NCBI GenBank assembly: GCA_963770835.1
Contig: CAVYRH010000005.1
Span: forward strand, 320,001 to 384,000
Direction of reading: 5' to 3'
DNA length: 64,000 nt
Origin: an uncultured Pseudomonadota bacterium
GTDB lineage: Bacteria > Oederibacteriota > Muellerivitia > Muellerivitales > Muellerivitaceae
This document shows, piece after piece, positions 43,194 to 50,920 of this stretch (positions are counted from its first letter, which is position 1; the number at the start of each line of letters is the position of its first letter). The position numbers and the translations under genes are program-made. The notes under the pieces are model-generated. The model worked only from the letters and a program-made list of their open reading frames with translations. It had not been told where the DNA came from and made no database searches.

Positions 43194-43715
43194 TCAGCTT
43201 TTAGCGCTGGGGACCGACTTCCAAACCTTGTCCACTCCGGCGGGCAGGGAATCCATGTGCTTCAAAAACAGGACCACCTGCCAAACCTGTTCCTCCGTCA
43301 GGGTTCCGCTGAAGGCGGGCATGCCGGTCAACCGGATGCCGTGCTTTACCTTCCAATAAATGACCCCCTCGGGATCGTCCTCTACTCCATCATCGGCCAA
43401 CTGGGGGGCATGCTGATATAGGCCCATAGCGATGTTGGAGGCCTTGGCGTCCGAGGCTCCATGGCAGGCCGCGCAGTTTTGGGCGTAAAGCTTTATTCCA
43501 ACTGTGAGGTTGGCGTCGTTTAGGGCAACGGGGACGGGCCCCTTGGGGGCTTCCCGTTGGATAGACGCATGAAGGGATTTGCGGGCCATCCATTTTTCAA
43601 TCCATGGGGGTTTCCCGTCCGCGTTCGCCGGCATGCATCCGAAGGAAATAAAGGCATAGGCTCCAACCACCAGTGCAACCAAGGTCACGATGACTCCAGC
43701 CAGGAACTTCTTCAT
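43194..43715 (-). CDS. c-type cytochrome
   Basis: N-terminal TM; CAACH heme motif; GIRLTGMPAF. Confidence 0.88.
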   Translation of the reverse strand: MKKFLAGVIVTLVALVVGAYAFISFGCMPANADGKPPWIEKWMARKSLHASIQREAPKGPVPVALNDANLTVGIKLYAQNCAACHGASDAKASNIAMGLYQHAPQLADDGVEDDPEGVIYWKVKHGIRLTGMPAFSGTLTEEQVWQVVLFLKHMDSLPAGVDKVWKSVPSAKS

Positions 43716-43875: not shown

Positions 43876-44544
43876 TTACTGGGCTGCGCCCAAGTGGACT
43901 TCTTGGCGGAGAACCTTCGAGCCGGAGGTTACGACCAGGTAATAAGTTCCCGGAGAAGCCACGGAGCCGTTCATATCCTTGCCGTCCCAGGTAAAGGTCC
44001 GTTTTCCCGCTGGGAGAATACCAGCGAAAAGAATGCGCATTTCCTTCTCCTGTGGGTCCATTACCTTTACCGTCACAAGGCCCTGCTGGGGATGAGTCAC
44101 CACAACGGAAAGCTCCTCGTGGATTTTTCCGCTTTGGCCCGAATTAGGGGAGGGTGCCGTGGAATGTTTTTTCGCATGGGCGGGTTTAGAGGACTGGGAC
44201 TTGGGTGATTCACGGGAATGGGTCGGCTGAGGCGTAAAAAGGGTGGAAGGGGTTTGGACCCGGAACAACCAACGGTAAAGGCAATAACCCGACCAGGCCA
44301 GGAACAGGAATAAAAGGGACCAGAGAAGGATGCGGAATGGACGGAAGCCGGATTTAGGGAAGAAGGGGGGCAAAGGCTTCTCCATCCACTTGGGCTCCGG
44401 AAGGCCGAGTGATCGGTAGTGCGCTTCCATCAATTCGACGAAACGCTGGGCGTCTTCCGGCGAGGAAGAAAGCCCTTGGGCCATTTGTTCTTCCTCGGAC
44501 TCGGTCAGGTCCCTCTTGAAATATTCGTCCAACAGCGGATTCAC
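43876..44544 (-). CDS. Putative anti-sigma factor: N-terminal helical domain, TM helix, C-terminal FlgD-Ig/CTD-like domain
   Basis: GTGA overlap with sigma stop; LLDEYFKRDLTESEEEQM; TM ILLWSLLFLFLAWSGY; FTWDGKDMNGSVASPGTYYLVV. Confidence 0.75.
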   Translation of the reverse strand: MNPLLDEYFKRDLTESEEEQMAQGLSSSPEDAQRFVELMEAHYRSLGLPEPKWMEKPLPPFFPKSGFRPFRILLWSLLFLFLAWSGYCLYRWLFRVQTPSTLFTPQPTHSRESPKSQSSKPAHAKKHSTAPSPNSGQSGKIHEELSVVVTHPQQGLVTVKVMDPQEKEMRILFAGILPAGKRTFTWDGKDMNGSVASPGTYYLVVTSGSKVLRQEVHLGAAQ

Positions 44545-45113
44545 GATTTCTCCCCTTTCCACTCACCCTCAAAAAGGTTTCTCAAAGCTTTCCGGCAGCG
44601 CGCTAACGGGGACATCACCGTCCCCATGGGAATTTTCAGGGTCCGGGAGATATTGATATAGCTCTCGCCTTTTTTGTCGCGCAATTCCAGGACTTTGCGG
44701 CACCTTTCGCTCAAAGAGTTGGTGATTCGGCCCAGAAGCGCCAGACGAGCCTGTTTTTCCTCTTCGACTTCTCTTTCCTCCCCCGGCGAAAGGGATTGGG
44801 GAAGGGCCAACCTTTCCAAGTCCTCGTGGAGGGACGCCAAGACCTTCTTTTTCCGCCTCAGCCTTTCATAGCAGAGGTTGGCGCAAATATTGGATAGCCA
44901 GGTGTAAAGGGTGGACCGGAATTCAAATTCCCGCAGCTTCCCCAGGGCAATGAGGAAGGTTTGCTGAAGGATATCCTCGGCGTCATCGTCCTCCGGACCC
45001 AAAAAGTGGATGCAAGTGTGGAAAAGGCGGCGGGAGTTTTCCCTATAAAAAACGGTTTGGGCCTCCACGTCGCCCGCCAGGATCCTTTTGACCAACTGCC
45101 TTTCGTCGGACAT
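44541..45113 (-). CDS. ECF RNA polymerase sigma factor
   Basis: Region 2 DAEDILQQTF..FRSTLYTWL..N; region 4 SYINISRTLKIPMGTVMSPLARCR. Confidence 0.92.
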   Translation of the reverse strand: MSDERQLVKRILAGDVEAQTVFYRENSRRLFHTCIHFLGPEDDDAEDILQQTFLIALGKLREFEFRSTLYTWLSNICANLCYERLRRKKKVLASLHEDLERLALPQSLSPGEEREVEEEKQARLALLGRITNSLSERCRKVLELRDKKGESYINISRTLKIPMGTVMSPLARCRKALRNLFEGEWKGEKS

Positions 45114-45129
45114 TCTTTCCTCGTAAATG

Positions 45130-45155
45130 TAGTGAATGGGGCGGCGGTTTATTCC
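45130..45155 (-). promoter_or_regulatory. Putative autoregulatory ECF promoter GGAATA-N15-CACTA
   Basis: Minus strand GGAATAAACCGCCGCCCCATTCACTAC upstream of the sigma RBS; same spacing as two copies at 47245 and 47331. Confidence 0.7.
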
Positions 45156-46660
45156 CCCCCGGGGCTCACCGGGTGGGATTGTCGGTACCGGGCCATCCAG
45201 TCTTTCAAGGCCTGTGCACCGGGTTTCAAGCGTAAAACCTCAGTAAAGCATTGTATGGCGTAATCGGGCTGACCCGACTGCCAATAGAGGTTTCCAAGAT
45301 CCATCCAGGCTTGGGCATCATTGGGGTTTTGCCCCACCTTCTGCCCTGCCTCATCCAGGGCCTTTTCCAGTTCGGGGGATGGCGTGGAGGAAGCGGATAC
45401 CGGGGATTCCACCGTGTCGGGGATTTGAAAAAAGGTTTCAACCTTCACCACTTGGTCGGAAGGAAGCTGCGTTGAGGAAGGACTGAAATTGAGTGAGGTT
45501 ATAGTGGGTGAGGGAGAGGGTTTATTGGAAACCACGGCCGTATTTGTCGGGCTCGGGACCTGAAGGTTTTCCGGGCTTGGGGTAACAGAAGGGGAAGCGG
45601 GGGTTGGGAGACGTGTGGAAACCGGCGTGGGGGAAGGGAAAAGGAAGGTTTTTGCCGGAACCGGAGTGGGTTTCGGGGTTTGGGTGGGAGAAGGAGTGGA
45701 AACCGGGGTGGGGTGGGGGATTGGGGGCCTTGAAGCTGGACTGGGCAGGCGGTAAGTGAGGCCGACCATTTGGGAAAACCCCAGGTCGCCGTCCGGCGCG
45801 TAACTGTAGTCCAGGCTGAAATCCTGAAAATCGAAACCCAAGCCACCGGTCAGGCCCCGGAATCCCGCAATGTAATTGTTATTCAATTCCCATTGGTAGC
45901 CCAAGCGGGCGACCAGGACATTTAAAAAAGGCTGTTCCGCCCCGAATTGAAGCCTCGCTACGTTGTAAAGAGGAAGGGAAAAAGTGGATTCCAGGAGGGT
46001 TGGATTTTTAAAGAGCAAGAGGGTAGACCAGGATGCCCCAACGCCCAAAAAGCCGACCCCAAGCTGGGAGTCCGTATTCAAAAAGGTATAGGAGGCTCCC
46101 AAATCGAAGTTTGAAAAGGGATTCCAGAGCGCTCCGGCTTGCAAGGAAGAAGACAGGTTGGAGATGCCGGGGGCCAGGGATTGGAAAAGACCCTGGACTG
46201 AAAGCCCAACTGAGAAGCCGGAAAACCAGGGACTGCCCCATCCCAATGAAAGGGAACCCCTAAAAGGATGGTTGGAAGAAGTCGGGTTTCCCAATGCGTC
46301 ATAACCCTCTAGCGGCCCAAAGTCGAGGTAGTTCGCGCCAAGTGCGAAACCGCCGATTTTTCCGGTTGGAAAGCCGGCCAGGAGGGTTTCCTGGGAAATG
46401 CCGGCGATCCAGTCCTCGTGGACCAGGGACAACTGGAAGGAATCCAGCCCGCCCAAACCGGCGGGATTGTAAAAGAGGCAGGCGGGGTCCCCCGATACCG
46501 CCGTGAAAGCCTCACCCAGCGCGGAAGCCCGGGGGGAATGGCCCAGGTTTTCCAACGGGTAAGGTGTATTAGCGGTGGTATAAATCGTCTGACTGAAGGA
46601 GAGCGCCGGGAGGGAGAGAACGCCTCCCAAGACGCAAGGCAGAAGCTTCTTGGGAACCAT
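45149..46660 (-). CDS. PorV/PorQ-like beta-barrel with Pro/Thr linker and C-terminal TPR (start 46660-46717)
   Basis: SPRASALGEAFTAV..LFYNPAGL, LVARLGY, GLTGGLGF, LDYSY, GLTYRL; then P/T tract and NPNDAQAWMDLGNLY. Confidence 0.8.
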   Translation of the reverse strand: MVPKKLLPCVLGGVLSLPALSFSQTIYTTANTPYPLENLGHSPRASALGEAFTAVSGDPACLFYNPAGLGGLDSFQLSLVHEDWIAGISQETLLAGFPTGKIGGFALGANYLDFGPLEGYDALGNPTSSNHPFRGSLSLGWGSPWFSGFSVGLSVQGLFQSLAPGISNLSSSLQAGALWNPFSNFDLGASYTFLNTDSQLGVGFLGVGASWSTLLLFKNPTLLESTFSLPLYNVARLQFGAEQPFLNVLVARLGYQWELNNNYIAGFRGLTGGLGFDFQDFSLDYSYAPDGDLGFSQMVGLTYRLPSPASRPPIPHPTPVSTPSPTQTPKPTPVPAKTFLFPSPTPVSTRLPTPASPSVTPSPENLQVPSPTNTAVVSNKPSPSPTITSLNFSPSSTQLPSDQVVKVETFFQIPDTVESPVSASSTPSPELEKALDEAGQKVGQNPNDAQAWMDLGNLYWQSGQPDYAIQCFTEVLRLKPGAQALKDWMARYRQSHPVSPGGE

Positions 46661-46728
46661 GGGTTTAAAATCTTTCAAAGCGCGGAACATGCGATCAACC
46701 TTTTGGGTGCCGTGCACAGGCGTGTTTT

Positions 46729-47106
46729 TTATTTGGAGACGATGAACTTGAAAAGTGGGAGGGCCGATCCCCCTCCCGAGTCCAGGGTTAAAACCACGCG
46801 GCAGATGTAAACGCCGGGACGGTAATGGGTTAGGTCCAAGTAAACCTGTTGGACGCCAGCGTTGTTCGATTGTTGGGTTTGGGCCGCCAGGTCGCCGGCC
46901 TCGTTAAAGATGTAGACGGTGGCGGTTCCGCTTTCGGGAAGGTTGTAGACGACCCAGGCGGAGCTTCCTTGGGATGGGGAAGGATAGACGAAACACTGGC
47001 CTTCGGCCGGCACCTGTAAAGCGGAGGCTTTGGAAAGTAACAGGAAAAAAACCACGAAGGTTTTCGCCCAAAATTCGAGTCGCCAGATGGATGAGAAAAG
47101 TTTCAT
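46729..47106 (-). CDS. Stand-alone T9SS type-A sorting (CTD)-like protein with signal peptide
   Basis: VYPSP..VYIFNEAGDL..PGVYICRV..KFIVSK directly after a signal peptide. Confidence 0.72.
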   Translation of the reverse strand: MKLFSSIWRLEFWAKTFVVFFLLLSKASALQVPAEGQCFVYPSPSQGSSAWVVYNLPESGTATVYIFNEAGDLAAQTQQSNNAGVQQVYLDLTHYRPGVYICRVVLTLDSGGGSALPLFKFIVSK

Positions 47107-47240
47107 AAGGTCTTTAGGGAAAGGAATTGAAATAACTCGGAAACCCTGGAAAAGCAAATCCAGCCAGCCTTTTGAACGAAAATTATTTTATCTTTTGTCT
47201 GGTCAAATGAAAGACATCTCTTTGGGAAAATTATTTTGAG

Positions 47241-47359
47241 TTAGGGAATAAAAAGGCGGGCCGATCACAATACTTTCATTCGAAGGCGCAGGCCGGTTTT
47301 TGGCTAGTTGTGATAAGCTTTGGCAATTAGGGAATAAAACCCACGTTTTGACACTATAC
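47241..47359 (+). promoter_or_regulatory. Two tandem putative ECF promoters TTAGGGAATAAAA-N12-CAC(A/T)ATAC
   Basis: 47241-47273 and 47327-47359, identical spacing. Confidence 0.7.
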
Positions 47360-47392
47360 GGTTGAAGGAAAAAAGGCGTGGAGGGATATGTT

Positions 47393-49039
47393 ATGAAACG
47401 CTTCATTATTCCAATGTTTTTATGTCTTTTGGTCTCGAACCTGGCCTGCAGGGGCACCTATCCACCTACCTCTCCGTCGGGCCCCATTACTTTGACTCCC
47501 TCAGGTACTGTTACGCAAACTGTCACCCAAACAGTGCCCGTAACTCTTACGGGTACTCCTAGCCCCTCCGGGACCATTCCCGTGACGGTGACCGTGACCT
47601 CGACGGTTACATGGACTCCAACAGCCACCCTGCCCGTTACTTTAACGGGTACGCCAATCCCTTCCCCAACCAATTCGATCACAGCCACTTGGACTCCCAC
47701 GTCAACAATGCCCGTTACTTTAACAAGCACACCCAGTTCTACTGCAACCATTCCAGTCACGGTGACTTTGATTCCCACAAGCACGGCCACTCCCACCGGG
47801 ACGTCAACGGCTTCGCTACCTACCCCCTCCTGCGGCACGACATGGTATTTAGGATTCCCCGCGAACCAGAACTCCTTTTCCATATCAGGAATAACCGACG
47901 CTTATGACCAAAGTACCGCCCCATATTCTGGAATGGTCTCCAGCCTTCATTTTTACGTTCCATCCGGTGGAGTGACGGCCAACGTCGGGATTTACTCCGA
48001 TAACGGCGGCCAGCCGGGGACGCAGTTGTCCTCATCTAATGTTTTCATCGACGGTAGCGGGTGGAATACAGTCTCCCTGAACACCCCTGTTAATGTAACC
48101 GGCGGGACCAACTATTGGCTGGCCGTTTGCTTCGGCTCCTTCACGACGATCGGGGGCGGGAACAATGCTAGTTACAGTTATCTTACCCAACCAGTAAGTT
48201 CGCTCATCCTTCCTTCCTCCTATGGCGGGGGAGCCGCTTCAAATATTGGATGGCTGGCAATTTACGCGGACATCTGCCCCTCCGCTGGAACCCCGACCTC
48301 GACACCAACCTCCACCGCCACGCTAACCGGCTTGGATATTTCGGGCCCTGTTACTCTTTCCGGAGGAAATTACGACTATTCCTATGTTCATGTTCACTCA
48401 AACACTCTTTATCTCGGCGGTCCGGTAACCTTTAGCCTAACGGGATATTTCGCTCTGGATGCTGGAGCATCCATCACAGGATGGGCGGGCTATTCCGTGA
48501 CTGAGCCAGGAGTGCCTTCTAATTTTGCTTCCGGCGGCGCCGGTGGAGGTCATGGCGGCACGGGCGGGGCGGATGCCCAGGGAAATAGCGGTGGGTCGGC
48601 TTATGACAATATCCTGGCGCCAACCCTTCCGGGAAGCTGGGGAGGAGGGGGCAGCTGCAGCCAGCAAGGATTCGCCGGCGATTTGATTCAGGTTAACGTA
48701 GTGAATGGCCCTGCGACATTGAATGGTATCATTTTCGCGAGCGGGGGTGCTGGTACTGTTTCTAATTGCGTTGGCGCCGCCATGGCTACAGGAGGGGCTT
48801 CGGGTGGAACCATCTTTATCCAGGCGGATACCATCGAAGGCAACGGCGCATTGTTGGCAGATGGCGGCGCGGGAGGCGCGGGCAGCACCTATAACAGCGG
48901 CGGAGGAGGGGGAGGAATTATCCTTCTTTCTACCCATACGGCGAACAATTTCACTGGCACCAATTCCGTGCAAGGCGGAATAGCGTCCTCCCCCGCACAG
49001 GCTGGCCAGCCGGGTGCCTTTAACAACACGACTTATTAA
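47393..49039 (+). CDS. Surface lipoprotein: Thr/Pro mucin-like stalk, beta-sandwich domain, Gly-rich C-terminal domain
   Basis: Lipobox NLAC; repeated PVTLT; GIYSDNGGQPG..GWNTV..YWLAV; GGAGGGHGGTGG, GGASGGTIFI, GGGGGGIILL. Confidence 0.78.
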   Translation: MKRFIIPMFLCLLVSNLACRGTYPPTSPSGPITLTPSGTVTQTVTQTVPVTLTGTPSPSGTIPVTVTVTSTVTWTPTATLPVTLTGTPIPSPTNSITATWTPTSTMPVTLTSTPSSTATIPVTVTLIPTSTATPTGTSTASLPTPSCGTTWYLGFPANQNSFSISGITDAYDQSTAPYSGMVSSLHFYVPSGGVTANVGIYSDNGGQPGTQLSSSNVFIDGSGWNTVSLNTPVNVTGGTNYWLAVCFGSFTTIGGGNNASYSYLTQPVSSLILPSSYGGGAASNIGWLAIYADICPSAGTPTSTPTSTATLTGLDISGPVTLSGGNYDYSYVHVHSNTLYLGGPVTFSLTGYFALDAGASITGWAGYSVTEPGVPSNFASGGAGGGHGGTGGADAQGNSGGSAYDNILAPTLPGSWGGGGSCSQQGFAGDLIQVNVVNGPATLNGIIFASGGAGTVSNCVGAAMATGGASGGTIFIQADTIEGNGALLADGGAGGAGSTYNSGGGGGGIILLSTHTANNFTGTNSVQGGIASSPAQAGQPGAFNNTTY

Positions 49040-49096: not shown

Positions 49097-50920
49097 TTAA
49101 TGCCCAGTAATGAGCTTTCTCCATTGTTTCCGCAGAACATGGGCCGCCAGTTTGGGACGCCGGTCGCGGGTGAAGACGCCCTTCCAGTTCATGGCGCCGG
49201 GCCGGTGGGGGGCCTGGGCGGTCTTGAAATCGCAAAGATTCCAAATATGGGCTCCAGCCACGTAGGGGAGCTTATCCAGGACCTTCAGGTAACGTTCAAT
49301 CATTTCGGCCTGGTATTCCTCCGAAAACATCTCCGGCGGTTCGGCATGATGGCCCGGTATGGCATCCGCGCCAAATTCGGTCAGGATCAGGGGTTTTTGA
49401 AAGCGGCGGTGGATGGTCTCCATGTCTTTGGGAAGCTTTTCGCAAGCCTTATCCAAGTCGCCTTCCTCGCTGTACCAACCGAAGTAACGGTTAACGCAAA
49501 CTGCGTCCAGGAACTGGAACGCTTCTTCCTTTAAACCGATATAGCTTGCGAGGGTGATGGGGCGGGTTTTATCAAGGCTCCGGGCCAAATCCGCCAGGTT
49601 CTTGAAAAAGCCCCTGGCAGCGGGCCGGTGGGAATGGGGCTCGTTGGCCAGACTCCACAGAATGACGCTGGGGTGGTTCTTATCGCGGTCGATCAGTTCC
49701 TGCGTGTATTGGCTGCAAAGCTCAAGGCGTTTGCCCAAGCCCTCCTCGTTGAAAAAAAGGCCCACCGCGGGCGTTTCATCGATCACAAGGAAACCCATCC
49801 GGTCGGCCAGGTCCAGGATTTCCTCCGAATAGGGGTAATGGGATGTCCGGAAGGAATTGGCGCCCACCCATTTCATCAATTCATAATCCTTGACCACCAC
49901 GGCGGCAGGTAGATGGCGGCCGGTAACGGGGAAATCCTCGTGGCGCCCGAAACCCCTCAGGTGGATGGGTTTTCCATTCAAAAGGAAACGGCTCCCCTTG
50001 ACGCGGATGGTCCGAATGCCAACGGGCAAGTCGATTTGATCGATGATTTCATTGTTCTGGACCATCTCCACCTTGAGCTGGTAAAGATTCGGCGAACCTG
50101 GGGCCCAAAGCCTCGCATTGGGAACGCTCAAAAGAGCCGTGGTTTTCCCTGGGCCGATTGCTTTGACGGCGATTACTTTGCGGTCGAATCCTGTCAGGCA
50201 GAAACGCGCAGTAAGGGATTGGGAAGAATCGGTGGCCACTTCGACCTTTACCGCGCCCGTCTTGCCGGAGATATCCGTTATGACGGTTATATCCTGGATA
50301 GAGGTTTGGGGAGTTGCGACCAAAAGAACAGGCCGATGTATTCCGCAGTAAGGGAAGAAGTCGAACGAAGCGGGTGGGTTAAAAAAATTATTAAAACGAT
50401 CCTTGGGATCGGGCGGGACATTGCCGGGAGGTACCCGGTTGGGGGCCAAAAGGCCTTCAACCCTTACCACCAAGAGGTTATCCTTGGGTTTTAAATGTGG
50501 AGTAGTTTCCAAAACAAAGGGCAGGTGTCCCCCTTCGTGTTCCCCTAATTTCGTCCCATTGAGCCAAACCTGGGCCAGGTAGTTCACCGAGCCGAACCGG
50601 ATGGAAAGATGCTTGTCTTTAAATCCCCAAGGTAAGTCAAAACGAGTTTGGTACCAGGCCGGTCCCAGATAATCCCGCGTGTCCTGGTATTGATCATTCC
50701 AGCTGGAAGGAACGGCGATGAGACGGTCCTGGGGGAAACCCTTGGACCAGCCTTTGGAAAGGCCCGAATCTTTCGGGTCCAGCCGGAAATCCCAAAAGCC
50801 CGAAAGGTCCTGGAATTGACGGAAGGAATTATTTTGGGGATAAATCACGGTTTTTTCTTGGGCTGCGGGTATTTGCTCTCGTAAGGATTTAACATGTTCC
50901 GATATGAAGGGTTTTTCCAA
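49097..50920 (-). CDS. uidA: Beta-glucuronidase (GH2)
   Basis: GFGRHED, ANSFRTSHYPY, WSLANEP, NRYFGWY, TEFGAD, NWKGVFTRDRRPK. Confidence 0.88.
   Translation of the reverse strand: MEKPFISEHVKSLREQIPAAQEKTVIYPQNNSFRQFQDLSGFWDFRLDPKDSGLSKGWSKGFPQDRLIAVPSSWNDQYQDTRDYLGPAWYQTRFDLPWGFKDKHLSIRFGSVNYLAQVWLNGTKLGEHEGGHLPFVLETTPHLKPKDNLLVVRVEGLLAPNRVPPGNVPPDPKDRFNNFFNPPASFDFFPYCGIHRPVLLVATPQTSIQDITVITDISGKTGAVKVEVATDSSQSLTARFCLTGFDRKVIAVKAIGPGKTTALLSVPNARLWAPGSPNLYQLKVEMVQNNEIIDQIDLPVGIRTIRVKGSRFLLNGKPIHLRGFGRHEDFPVTGRHLPAAVVVKDYELMKWVGANSFRTSHYPYSEEILDLADRMGFLVIDETPAVGLFFNEEGLGKRLELCSQYTQELIDRDKNHPSVILWSLANEPHSHRPAARGFFKNLADLARSLDKTRPITLASYIGLKEEAFQFLDAVCVNRYFGWYSEEGDLDKACEKLPKDMETIHRRFQKPLILTEFGADAIPGHHAEPPEMFSEEYQAEMIERYLKVLDKLPYVAGAHIWNLCDFKTAQAPHRPGAMNWKGVFTRDRRPKLAAHVLRKQWRKLITGH

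Follow-up and report, generated by a model that had tools for sequence, protein, structure and literature searches.

A conserved sigma/anti-sigma cassette with a PorV-like barrel and a type IX-like cargo protein: a candidate trans-envelope signalling module in an uncultured bacterial lineage

To our knowledge, the Gram-negative routes that lead from the cell surface to a sigma factor of the extracytoplasmic function (ECF) type pass via TonB-dependent transporters or stress sensors. The present work deals with a cassette of four genes, and with a divergent lipoprotein gene, located in a stretch of 64,000 nucleotides (nt) of an uncultured bacterium (the window, i.e., positions 320,001 to 384,000 of contig CAVYRH010000005.1, assembly GCA_963770835.1). 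The cassette encodes an ECF sigma factor, a membrane anti-sigma factor ending in an immunoglobulin-like (Ig) domain, a PorV-like outer-membrane barrel with a periplasmic tail, and a small protein carrying a C-terminal domain (CTD) that resembles those of type IX secretion system (T9SS) cargo. The barrel tail is predicted to bind the anti-sigma Ig domain, and the cassette would thus link the surface to the sigma factor.

In cell-surface signalling (FoxA-FoxR-FoxI, FecA-FecR-FecI, PupB-PupR-PupI), the periplasmic domain of a barrel contacts the anti-sigma factor at its C-terminal domain; in the Fox system, contact with the FoxA signalling domain is described as protecting the anti-sigma factor FoxR until the signal (PMC11637429). 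The cassette resembles these systems in that (i) a contact of this kind is predicted here and (ii) the ECF sigma gene is clustered with that of a single-pass membrane anti-sigma factor. It differs in that (i) the barrel is of the PorV/FadL type, with 14 strands, and not a TonB-dependent transporter; (ii) the contact module is C-terminal and made of a strand plus a tetratricopeptide repeat (TPR) domain on a long linker; (iii) the anti-sigma factor ends in a FlgD-type Ig domain and has no FecR Pfam match; (iv) the sensing role likely falls to a CTD-tagged protein that is separate and exchangeable. The cassette is thus set apart from the FecIRA systems, since it has neither a TonB-dependent transducer nor a FecR domain. 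It also lies outside a full Bacteroidota T9SS, and is therefore filed as a variant of trans-envelope ECF signalling.

The nearest T9SS precedent is PorA (PorA-PorV/PorY-PorX-SigP, Porphyromonas gingivalis), a small PorV-binding CTD protein that feeds an ECF sigma factor; PorA is reported to signal from the periplasm, via a histidine kinase, PorV not being needed (PMC7712824, PMC12152298). The cassette, in contrast, has a cognate anti-sigma factor and a dedicated barrel whose tail would serve in signalling, and it exists in several parallel copies whose outputs are local. Type B CTD cargo genes adjoin the gene of their own outer-membrane shuttle, PorP/SprF (PMC12618676), which is also the case here; however, the cassette CTD is type-A-like, its PorV-like shuttle extends into a periplasmic tail and goes with a sigma pair, and GldL, GldM and GldN were not found in the three family genomes searched. 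In SigI-RsgI (Bacillus, cellulolytic clostridia), several parallel sigma/anti-sigma copies sense plant polysaccharides and a beta-sheet common to two chains keeps the system off until their separation, RsgI being one autocleaved chain of Gram-positive cells (PMC10556640). The sheet of the cassette is instead predicted between two gene products and would span a Gram-negative periplasm, and its sigma factor is an ECF one with another promoter. A published description of the cassette was not found in the literature searched, subscription papers being mostly outside that search; in the ECF re-classification (PMC7826278), FlgD is absent from the main text and none of six terms appears in one supplementary file.

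The source genome has six cassettes, i.e., the same four genes stand together at five further places. At E ≤1e-12, a profile of the anti-sigma factor matches 44 of 99 genomes in the phylum, including the 30 other genomes of the family (30/30). Outside the family, only genome G069 has a full-length anti-sigma factor, the remaining matches among the 99 genomes being partial. From 101 stretches picked around anti-sigma matches, 96 distinct full-length anti-sigma factors were obtained: the sigma gene is present at 93 of these loci, the barrel at 84, the tail at 80, the CTD protein at 77 and every part at 72, some of the missing parts sitting at contig ends. Among the matches listed, the anti-sigma factor is absent from all 158 other ECF loci used as controls (158/158); an unrelated weak PorV-like gene adjoins the sigma gene in 2 of them. 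The cassette is thus not a chance association, since it recurs at five other sites and in 72/96 anti-sigma loci, versus 0/158 other ECF loci. It must be noted that gene order varies among the 76 ordered cassettes: S-A-C-B in 33, S-A-B-C in 16, c-B-S-A in 16, C-B-S-A in 9 and other orders in 2 (S, sigma; A, anti-sigma; B, barrel; C, CTD protein; c, CTD protein without a head, the type found in the window). The full cassette also occurs in a named record labelled candidate division FCPU426 (L081), at least one of the 159 loci listed. The preliminary description of this DNA, made from the sequence, had suggested a trans-envelope signalling or secretion module assembled from T9SS-like components, in a window that otherwise does not look like Bacteroidota; a conserved sigma module of this kind is supported here.

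The search was also extended beyond the phylum. The anti-sigma profile collects 270 proteins at E ≤1e-30 among 1.84 billion representatives, with no context or taxa attached; out of 8 representatives looked up, 4 are named, as "hypothetical" or "FlgD immunoglobulin-like domain". The barrel homologue search gave 27 proteins among 8000 candidates scored. Pattern scans based on the sigma alignment (genome and metagenome contigs) say little on the range beyond the phylum and served as controls.

The anti-sigma Ig domain is predicted to bind the periplasmic tail of the barrel, i.e., a short strand and the TPR (residue numbers of cassette proteins are those of the longest open reading frames (ORFs), not of the inferred shorter starts). 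The complex prediction of tail versus Ig has a score of 0.61, versus 0.09 for the best of three controls. The mark used for this score is reached by 116 of 157 solved pairs and by 2 of 215 mismatched ones, counts that hold only roughly with own alignments. The runs agree on at least 90% of the contacts, with a partner pLDDT (predicted local distance difference test) of 76-77. The predicted interface joins tail residues 422-434 and the TPR with the first strand, the last strand and the loops of the Ig domain; on the Ig side, it comprises residues 147-159, 161-164, 174, 177, 179-182, 209, 211-216, 218, 220 and 222. These contact ranges may be read as an insertion of the tail strand between the first and last Ig strands. 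The Ig domain lacks a counterpart of the first CTD strand (YPxP) and has six strands versus seven in CTDs, seven being also the number described for T9SS type A CTDs (PMC10994853). A comparison of the tail and CTD profiles did not find homology between them.

The short strand located between linker and TPR is kept in the barrels, and one of its columns is Phe in 65 of 70. It is disordered alone (pLDDT <50, AlphaFold2 (AF2) model of the barrel protein) and ordered in the predicted complex. Tail matches accompany the anti-sigma factor in 29 of the 30 family genomes and in G069. In four further genomes, 6 of 7 tail matches begin past the strand and the seventh has no strand by eye. The source genome has 6 tail matches for its 6 cassettes, among 23 PorV-like ORFs. 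In L291 and L292, a barrel-TPR gene lies beside CTD cargo; the sequence around it contains no sigma pair, and the strand is absent. In L061 (G069:C2), the sigma and anti-sigma genes are directly followed by the tail (strand and TPR) on a Gly-rich membrane-type protein that is not a barrel (L061:9158-10201). Covariation between tail and Ig had also been considered as support and was dropped: it looked favourable versus a naive expectation and failed the within-clade permutation null.

The outer loops of the barrel were compared in turn with the CTD and the Ig domain. In PorV, the extracellular loops bind CTDs, N87 and F115 touching a conserved Lys (PMC10994853); F115 is kept and aligns with F133 of the window barrel (via the paralogue L025). 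The CTD protein of the window matches TIGR04183 with 28.4 bits (cut-off 23) and is type-A-like: the Pro of the YPxP strand is invariant, the last-strand Lys is K137, and a signal peptide is recognized by eye. Cassette CTDs form a subtype of their own, apart from the 52 ORFs that were selected with a general motif of cargo C-termini. Distances in the barrel loops go with those of the cassette CTD (partial r 0.33) and not with those of the Ig domain (0.03), the jackknife contrast being 0.19-0.42. The top covarying pairs, a clade-level signal, join F133, W103, I107, P151 and R153 of the barrel with S60, E86, V116, I118, K137 and F138 of the CTD. The cassette CTD protein is thus likely the ligand of the outer loops of its own barrel. 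The stand-alone CTD had been presented at first as a ligand or a competitor: the first role agrees with this co-divergence, while competition with the Ig domain is unsupported.

A bipartite motif, GGAATAAA-N15-17-CTA, was derived from the cassette upstream regions; in the window it precedes the sigma gene and the divergent lipoprotein gene (2 sites observed versus 0.05 expected). It is found upstream of 48 of 90 cassette sigma genes and of none of the 158 control sigma genes. A promoter matrix trained on 50 sites, all from other genomes, gave 18 hits in the source genome versus 4, 4 and 6 in shuffles. Site 47331, before the lipoprotein gene, ranks first of the 18 (score 28.7); another hit, at 45155, precedes the sigma gene, its −35 element including the stop codon of the barrel gene. 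In total, 10 of the 18 hits precede cassette genes, lipoproteins or CTD cargo. In the subtype of the window, 12 of 15 cassettes have the motif directed away from them and none (0/15) toward them, and a divergent lipoprotein gene is present in 13 of 16 cassettes (by eye). The lipoprotein is thus likely the output of the sigma factor, as its promoter position suggests and in line with the regulated gene foreseen at first. The regulons look local, since the strict motif is found on only 2 of the 112 CTD cargo genes of the source genome. The −10 element is ACTATA or GCTATA in the type of the window, and ACTCAT or CTAAT, or ACTAAG, ACTGG or ACTAG, in other subtypes; this difference suggests insulation between paralogues.

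In the other five cassettes of the source genome, the CTD stands behind a head of 350-500 residues. The heads of 40 CTD proteins scanned comprise PA14+CBM9, pectate lyase+malectin, lectin-like+DUF11, NHL or Kelch propellers, and IgGFc-binding domains. Downstream genes were scanned for 49 of the 61 listed. A pectate lyase head is followed by GH28 (2/2 cassettes), a lectin-like (LamG)/DUF11 head by PL4 (4/4 scanned), and a PA14+CBM9 head by GH62, GH30 or GH44 in 8 of 15 scanned, 3 others having malectin only. Propeller and unclassified heads are followed by NHL proteins or proteases.

On balance, the following reading appears the probable one: the PorV-like barrel holds its own CTD protein at the surface, its tail clamps the anti-sigma Ig domain, and loss of this clamp frees the sigma factor. 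Export of the CTD protein would pass via a SprA-like translocon, after which its cognate barrel would retain it, in the way that cognate shuttles retain type B cargo. According to the model, the tail strand would pack between the first and last Ig strands, in place of the missing first strand of a CTD, and the TPR would cradle the Ig loops; barrel and anti-sigma factor would then form a tether spanning the periplasm. By analogy with described systems, the tail-Ig contact may protect the anti-sigma factor until the surface protein binds its target, upon which the contact would be pulled or pried apart. In the head-less version of the window, loading or movement of the barrel might break it. Once the contact is lost, the Ig domain would be degraded, RseP would cut the membrane stub and the sigma factor would be released. 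The freed sigma factor would transcribe its own operon and the adjacent surface-protein genes, as the common motif suggests. Lipoproteins would be the outputs in the subtype of the window; in others, this role would go to enzymes that degrade polysaccharides, to proteases or to large propeller proteins. More tentatively, and in our opinion somewhat unlikely as a whole, the cassette might be a TonB-independent modular mechanosensor, in which a secretion shuttle has turned into a transducer of signals, an exchangeable CTD sensor sits on the barrel, the tail supplies the strand that the Ig domain lacks, pull or loading unzips a beta-sheet made by two proteins and sets off sigma release, each paralogue ties one substrate to one group of secreted proteins, and the T9SS, with SprA and many PorV paralogues, works with no recognisable motor.

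Several results weigh against the tail-clamp proposal. The trigger and its direction are drawn by analogy only. The lowest-error tail-Ig pairs listed are TPR-loop contacts. Tail-Ig covariation (mutual information with average-product correction, 70 paired cassettes) gives 6 of the top 20 pairs, for a within-clade permutation null of 1-11, and the tail-Ig partial distance correlation (0.10) is below that of Ig and barrel (0.29). Covariation between barrel loops and CTD gives 16 of the top 20, for a within-clade null of 12-18. The regular expression of the motif was derived from the same upstream regions. Nine anti-sigma loci have no barrel, tail or CTD protein nearby (L032, L047, L051, L253, L268, L269, L270, L273 and L278), some of them at contig ends. 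On the side of the heads, 4 of the 15 PA14+CBM9 cassettes have no downstream Pfam match, head-output matches are mostly co-inherited, with about three independent cases, and the CTD protein of the window has no sensing head, so that an outside ligand is not evident for this copy.

The secretion machinery is a further point. A survey of T9SS genes, suggested from the start, gave a SprA-like ORF of 1994 amino acids (aa) in the source genome (G000:C5 192794-198778; L293:6795-12779; E 5.8e-34); a SprA-like gene is present in 28 of 31 family genomes. This match is under the cut-off (116.6 versus 200 bits), and GldL, GldM and GldN were found in none of three near-complete family genomes and in both Bacteroidota controls (2/2), remote homologues being possible and GldK not searched. 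Export of the CTD protein by this route is thus putative. The search for the PorU sortase matched only the CTD end of the model and had no positive control. RseP is present in 5/5 family genomes. The sequence data point to a reduced type IX-like system, with SprA-like and PorV-like proteins and GldL/M/N not found. It may be added that the 23 PorV-like ORFs of the source genome have varied C-terminal extensions, and that this genome has more than 100 CTD-like cargo ORFs.

Among the other explanations, the one that survives best keeps the same tail-Ig clamp and makes it a sensor of secretion status, the signal being an unexported periplasmic CTD protein or an unloaded barrel. The head-less CTD of the c-B-S-A cassettes (16/76) suits an export reporter, the periplasmic CTD of PorA activates PorY in Porphyromonas gingivalis (PMC12152298), and the CTD-Ig partial correlation is 0.16. 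Moreover, the CTD and barrel genes of the subtype of the window have no sigma motif upstream (0/15), and would thus be made independently of the sigma factor. However, most cassettes have sugar-binding or propeller heads that match the neighbour enzymes and are needless for export monitoring, the SprA-like gene has no motif site upstream among the 18 genome-wide hits, and the presence of six copies in parallel, whose −10 elements differ, fits separate stimuli. This explanation is thus considered unlikely.

A static link is less probable still. In that case, the tail would only stabilise or position the anti-sigma factor, the stimulus would be read by the anti-sigma factor itself or by proteases, and barrel and CTD protein would be merely co-regulated. 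Both linkers are long, flexible and of variable length (barrel to strand 24-203 residues, transmembrane (TM) helix to Ig 45-142), i.e., poor conduits for allostery, and some barrel-TPR and cargo pairs exist with no sigma pair (L291, L292), as do sigma pairs with no nearby barrel. On the other hand, the tail strand follows the presence of the anti-sigma factor, the four genes remain together across at least four rearrangements, and the heads match the outputs.

Finally, docking of the Ig domain on the CTD site of the barrel, as proposed in the preliminary description, is very improbable. In this case, the Ig would act as a secretion tag, be threaded into the translocon and compete with the stand-alone CTD for the outer loops of the barrel. 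The CTD-like character of the Ig domain (match to the cassette CTD with an HH probability of 87, proximity to the PorU CTD), a last-strand Lys kept in 47 of 70 Ig domains and comparable to the Lys by which type A CTDs bind PorV (PMC10994853), the Ig-barrel partial correlation given above and low-scoring Atlas leads to Bacteroidota proteins of similar size with Por_Secre_tail or CHU_C speak for it, but the Ig is predicted on the tail and has no first CTD strand, the loops co-diverge with the cassette CTD instead, at the Lys position the window Ig carries Gln, and it has no TIGR04183 match, this Lys is found in 4/16 stand-alone-type anti-sigma factors versus 14/16 of their CTD proteins, the TM-to-Ig linker of the window copy (54 residues) is short for spanning periplasm and outer membrane, and the L061 cassette is barrel-less yet keeps the tail.

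The genes and features of the locus are collected in Table 1. The gene run listed in the preliminary description (CTD protein, PorV-like barrel with linker and TPR, ECF sigma factor, TM anti-sigma factor, divergent lipoprotein) is entirely present as placed, and its profile matches were recovered: TIGR04183, FlgD_ig and Sigma70_r2/r4_2 are above cut-off, TPR is matched, and the barrel reaches 85.8 bits with NF033709 (PorV family; cut-off 90), which five paralogues exceed.

Table 1. Coordinates of the cassette genes and associated features (positions in the window).
Feature	Position	Strand	Basis or remark
Anti-sigma gene, membrane anti-sigma factor	43876..44544	minus	Longest ORF to 44562; PF13860, AF2 model, FlgD fold match
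Ig domain of the anti-sigma factor, which the barrel tail is predicted to bind	43891..44109	minus	Complex model
ECF sigma factor, 190 aa, cassette-specific group	44541..45113	minus	Pfam, paralogue context, sigma alignment
Predicted sigma promoter, GGAATAAA ... CACTA	45130..45155	minus	42 nt upstream of the sigma gene
PorV-like 14-strand outer-membrane barrel, Pro-rich periplasmic linker, conserved strand and TPR	45149..46690	minus	
C-terminal TPR of the barrel protein, residues 448-514	45176..45376	minus	Second half of the predicted anti-sigma-binding surface
Conserved tail strand, residues 422-434 including F430	45416..45454	minus	Conservation, complex model
Signal peptide and stand-alone cassette-type CTD	46729..47106	minus	TIGR04183; longest ORF (142 aa) to 47157
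Second, weaker promoter-like copy	47245..47272	plus	−35 intact, −10 altered; under matrix threshold
Predicted sigma promoter toward the lipoprotein gene	47331..47356	plus	Best site of the genome
Divergent lipoprotein gene, likely output	47393..49039	plus	Longest ORF from 47378

The longest anti-sigma ORF (228 aa) matches FlgD_ig (PF13860) with 39.4 bits, for a cut-off of 27 (Pfam scan). The start is likely the GTG at 44544, which overlaps the sigma stop, and the database product has 222 aa. In the AF2 model, a cytoplasmic three-helix domain (residues 7-51) is followed by a TM helix (73-100), a Pro/Ser linker and a C-terminal FlgD-type Ig domain of six strands (152-224). The best fold match is FlgD, T9SS CTDs being also near (PorU CTD, Z 8.7). 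The three N-terminal helices, a candidate class I anti-sigma domain, are confident, and their alignment to the anti-sigma factor RsiW (5wuq_C) has a Z of 6.3, a weak score. FlgD_ig is the sole Pfam match of the periplasmic part at E ≤0.1, FecR being unmatched. Both domains of the sigma ORF were identified with Pfam/NCBIfam, and five paralogues in the genome adjoin the same partners. The barrel start is likely 46690 (longest ORF to 46717, 522 aa) and the database product has 513 aa. In the AF2 model, the barrel has 14 strands and is joined to a TPR by a disordered linker. The top Foldseek match is PorV (6h3i_F, E 7.9e-11), the FadL family coming next, and the profile match to the same structure has an E of 2e-13. 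The starts of the CTD protein (47106) and lipoprotein (47393) are likely ones, both from sequence. As read from its sequence, the lipoprotein comprises a lipobox-like Cys, a Thr/Pro stalk, a DUF4082-like domain (weak match, under cut-off) and a Gly-rich C-terminal domain; a usable Atlas match was not found for this gene. The locus is flanked by genes for a monoheme cytochrome c (43194-43715) and a GH2 beta-glucuronidase (49097-50920), neither of which is kept beside the other ordered cassettes.

Some variants of the cassette must also be mentioned. The anti-sigma gene of the C4 cassette is split over two frames (G000:C4 557151-557865, L024); a real frameshift would leave its sigma factor with no Ig sensor. 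In the same cassette, the divergent lipoprotein and the CTD protein have lectin-like domains in common. An orphan anti-sigma homologue with an internal duplication has no adjoining sigma gene (G000:C10 209178-210059). An apparent in-frame fusion of sigma and anti-sigma factors (652-aa ORF) stands beside a barrel with a tail (L280:6445-8403, G020:C6). At L064:1214-5345 (G026:C118), a cassette-type sigma gene is followed by a large TPR protein, whose C-terminus we take to be CHAT-like, and by an anti-sigma N-terminus on a different periplasmic domain. The most divergent cassette, L025 (G000:C10 101862-103754), has no promoter motif upstream of its sigma gene and is preceded by a gene presumably resembling that of the flagellar hook FlgE, judging from its termini. 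In other phyla, the Atlas leads (<0.9) for the anti-sigma factor (43876-44544) are Bacteroidota clusters of 261-391 aa, in which Por_Secre_tail (34%) or CHU_C (43-55%) occurs, and a cluster of Ignavibacteriota, in which zf-HC2 does (45%). These clusters are possibly anti-sigma factors with secretion-tag-like ends.

The cassettes supply related sigma/promoter pairs with differing −10 elements. The phylum is described as including cellulose degraders (PMC7031533), and the cassettes would represent a regulatory logic for polysaccharide degradation in this uncultured phylum. If the proposal is true, the cassette adds a surface-to-ECF route whose parts come from type IX secretion, its sensor being of the plug-in kind and both its two-chain interface and its promoter being defined.

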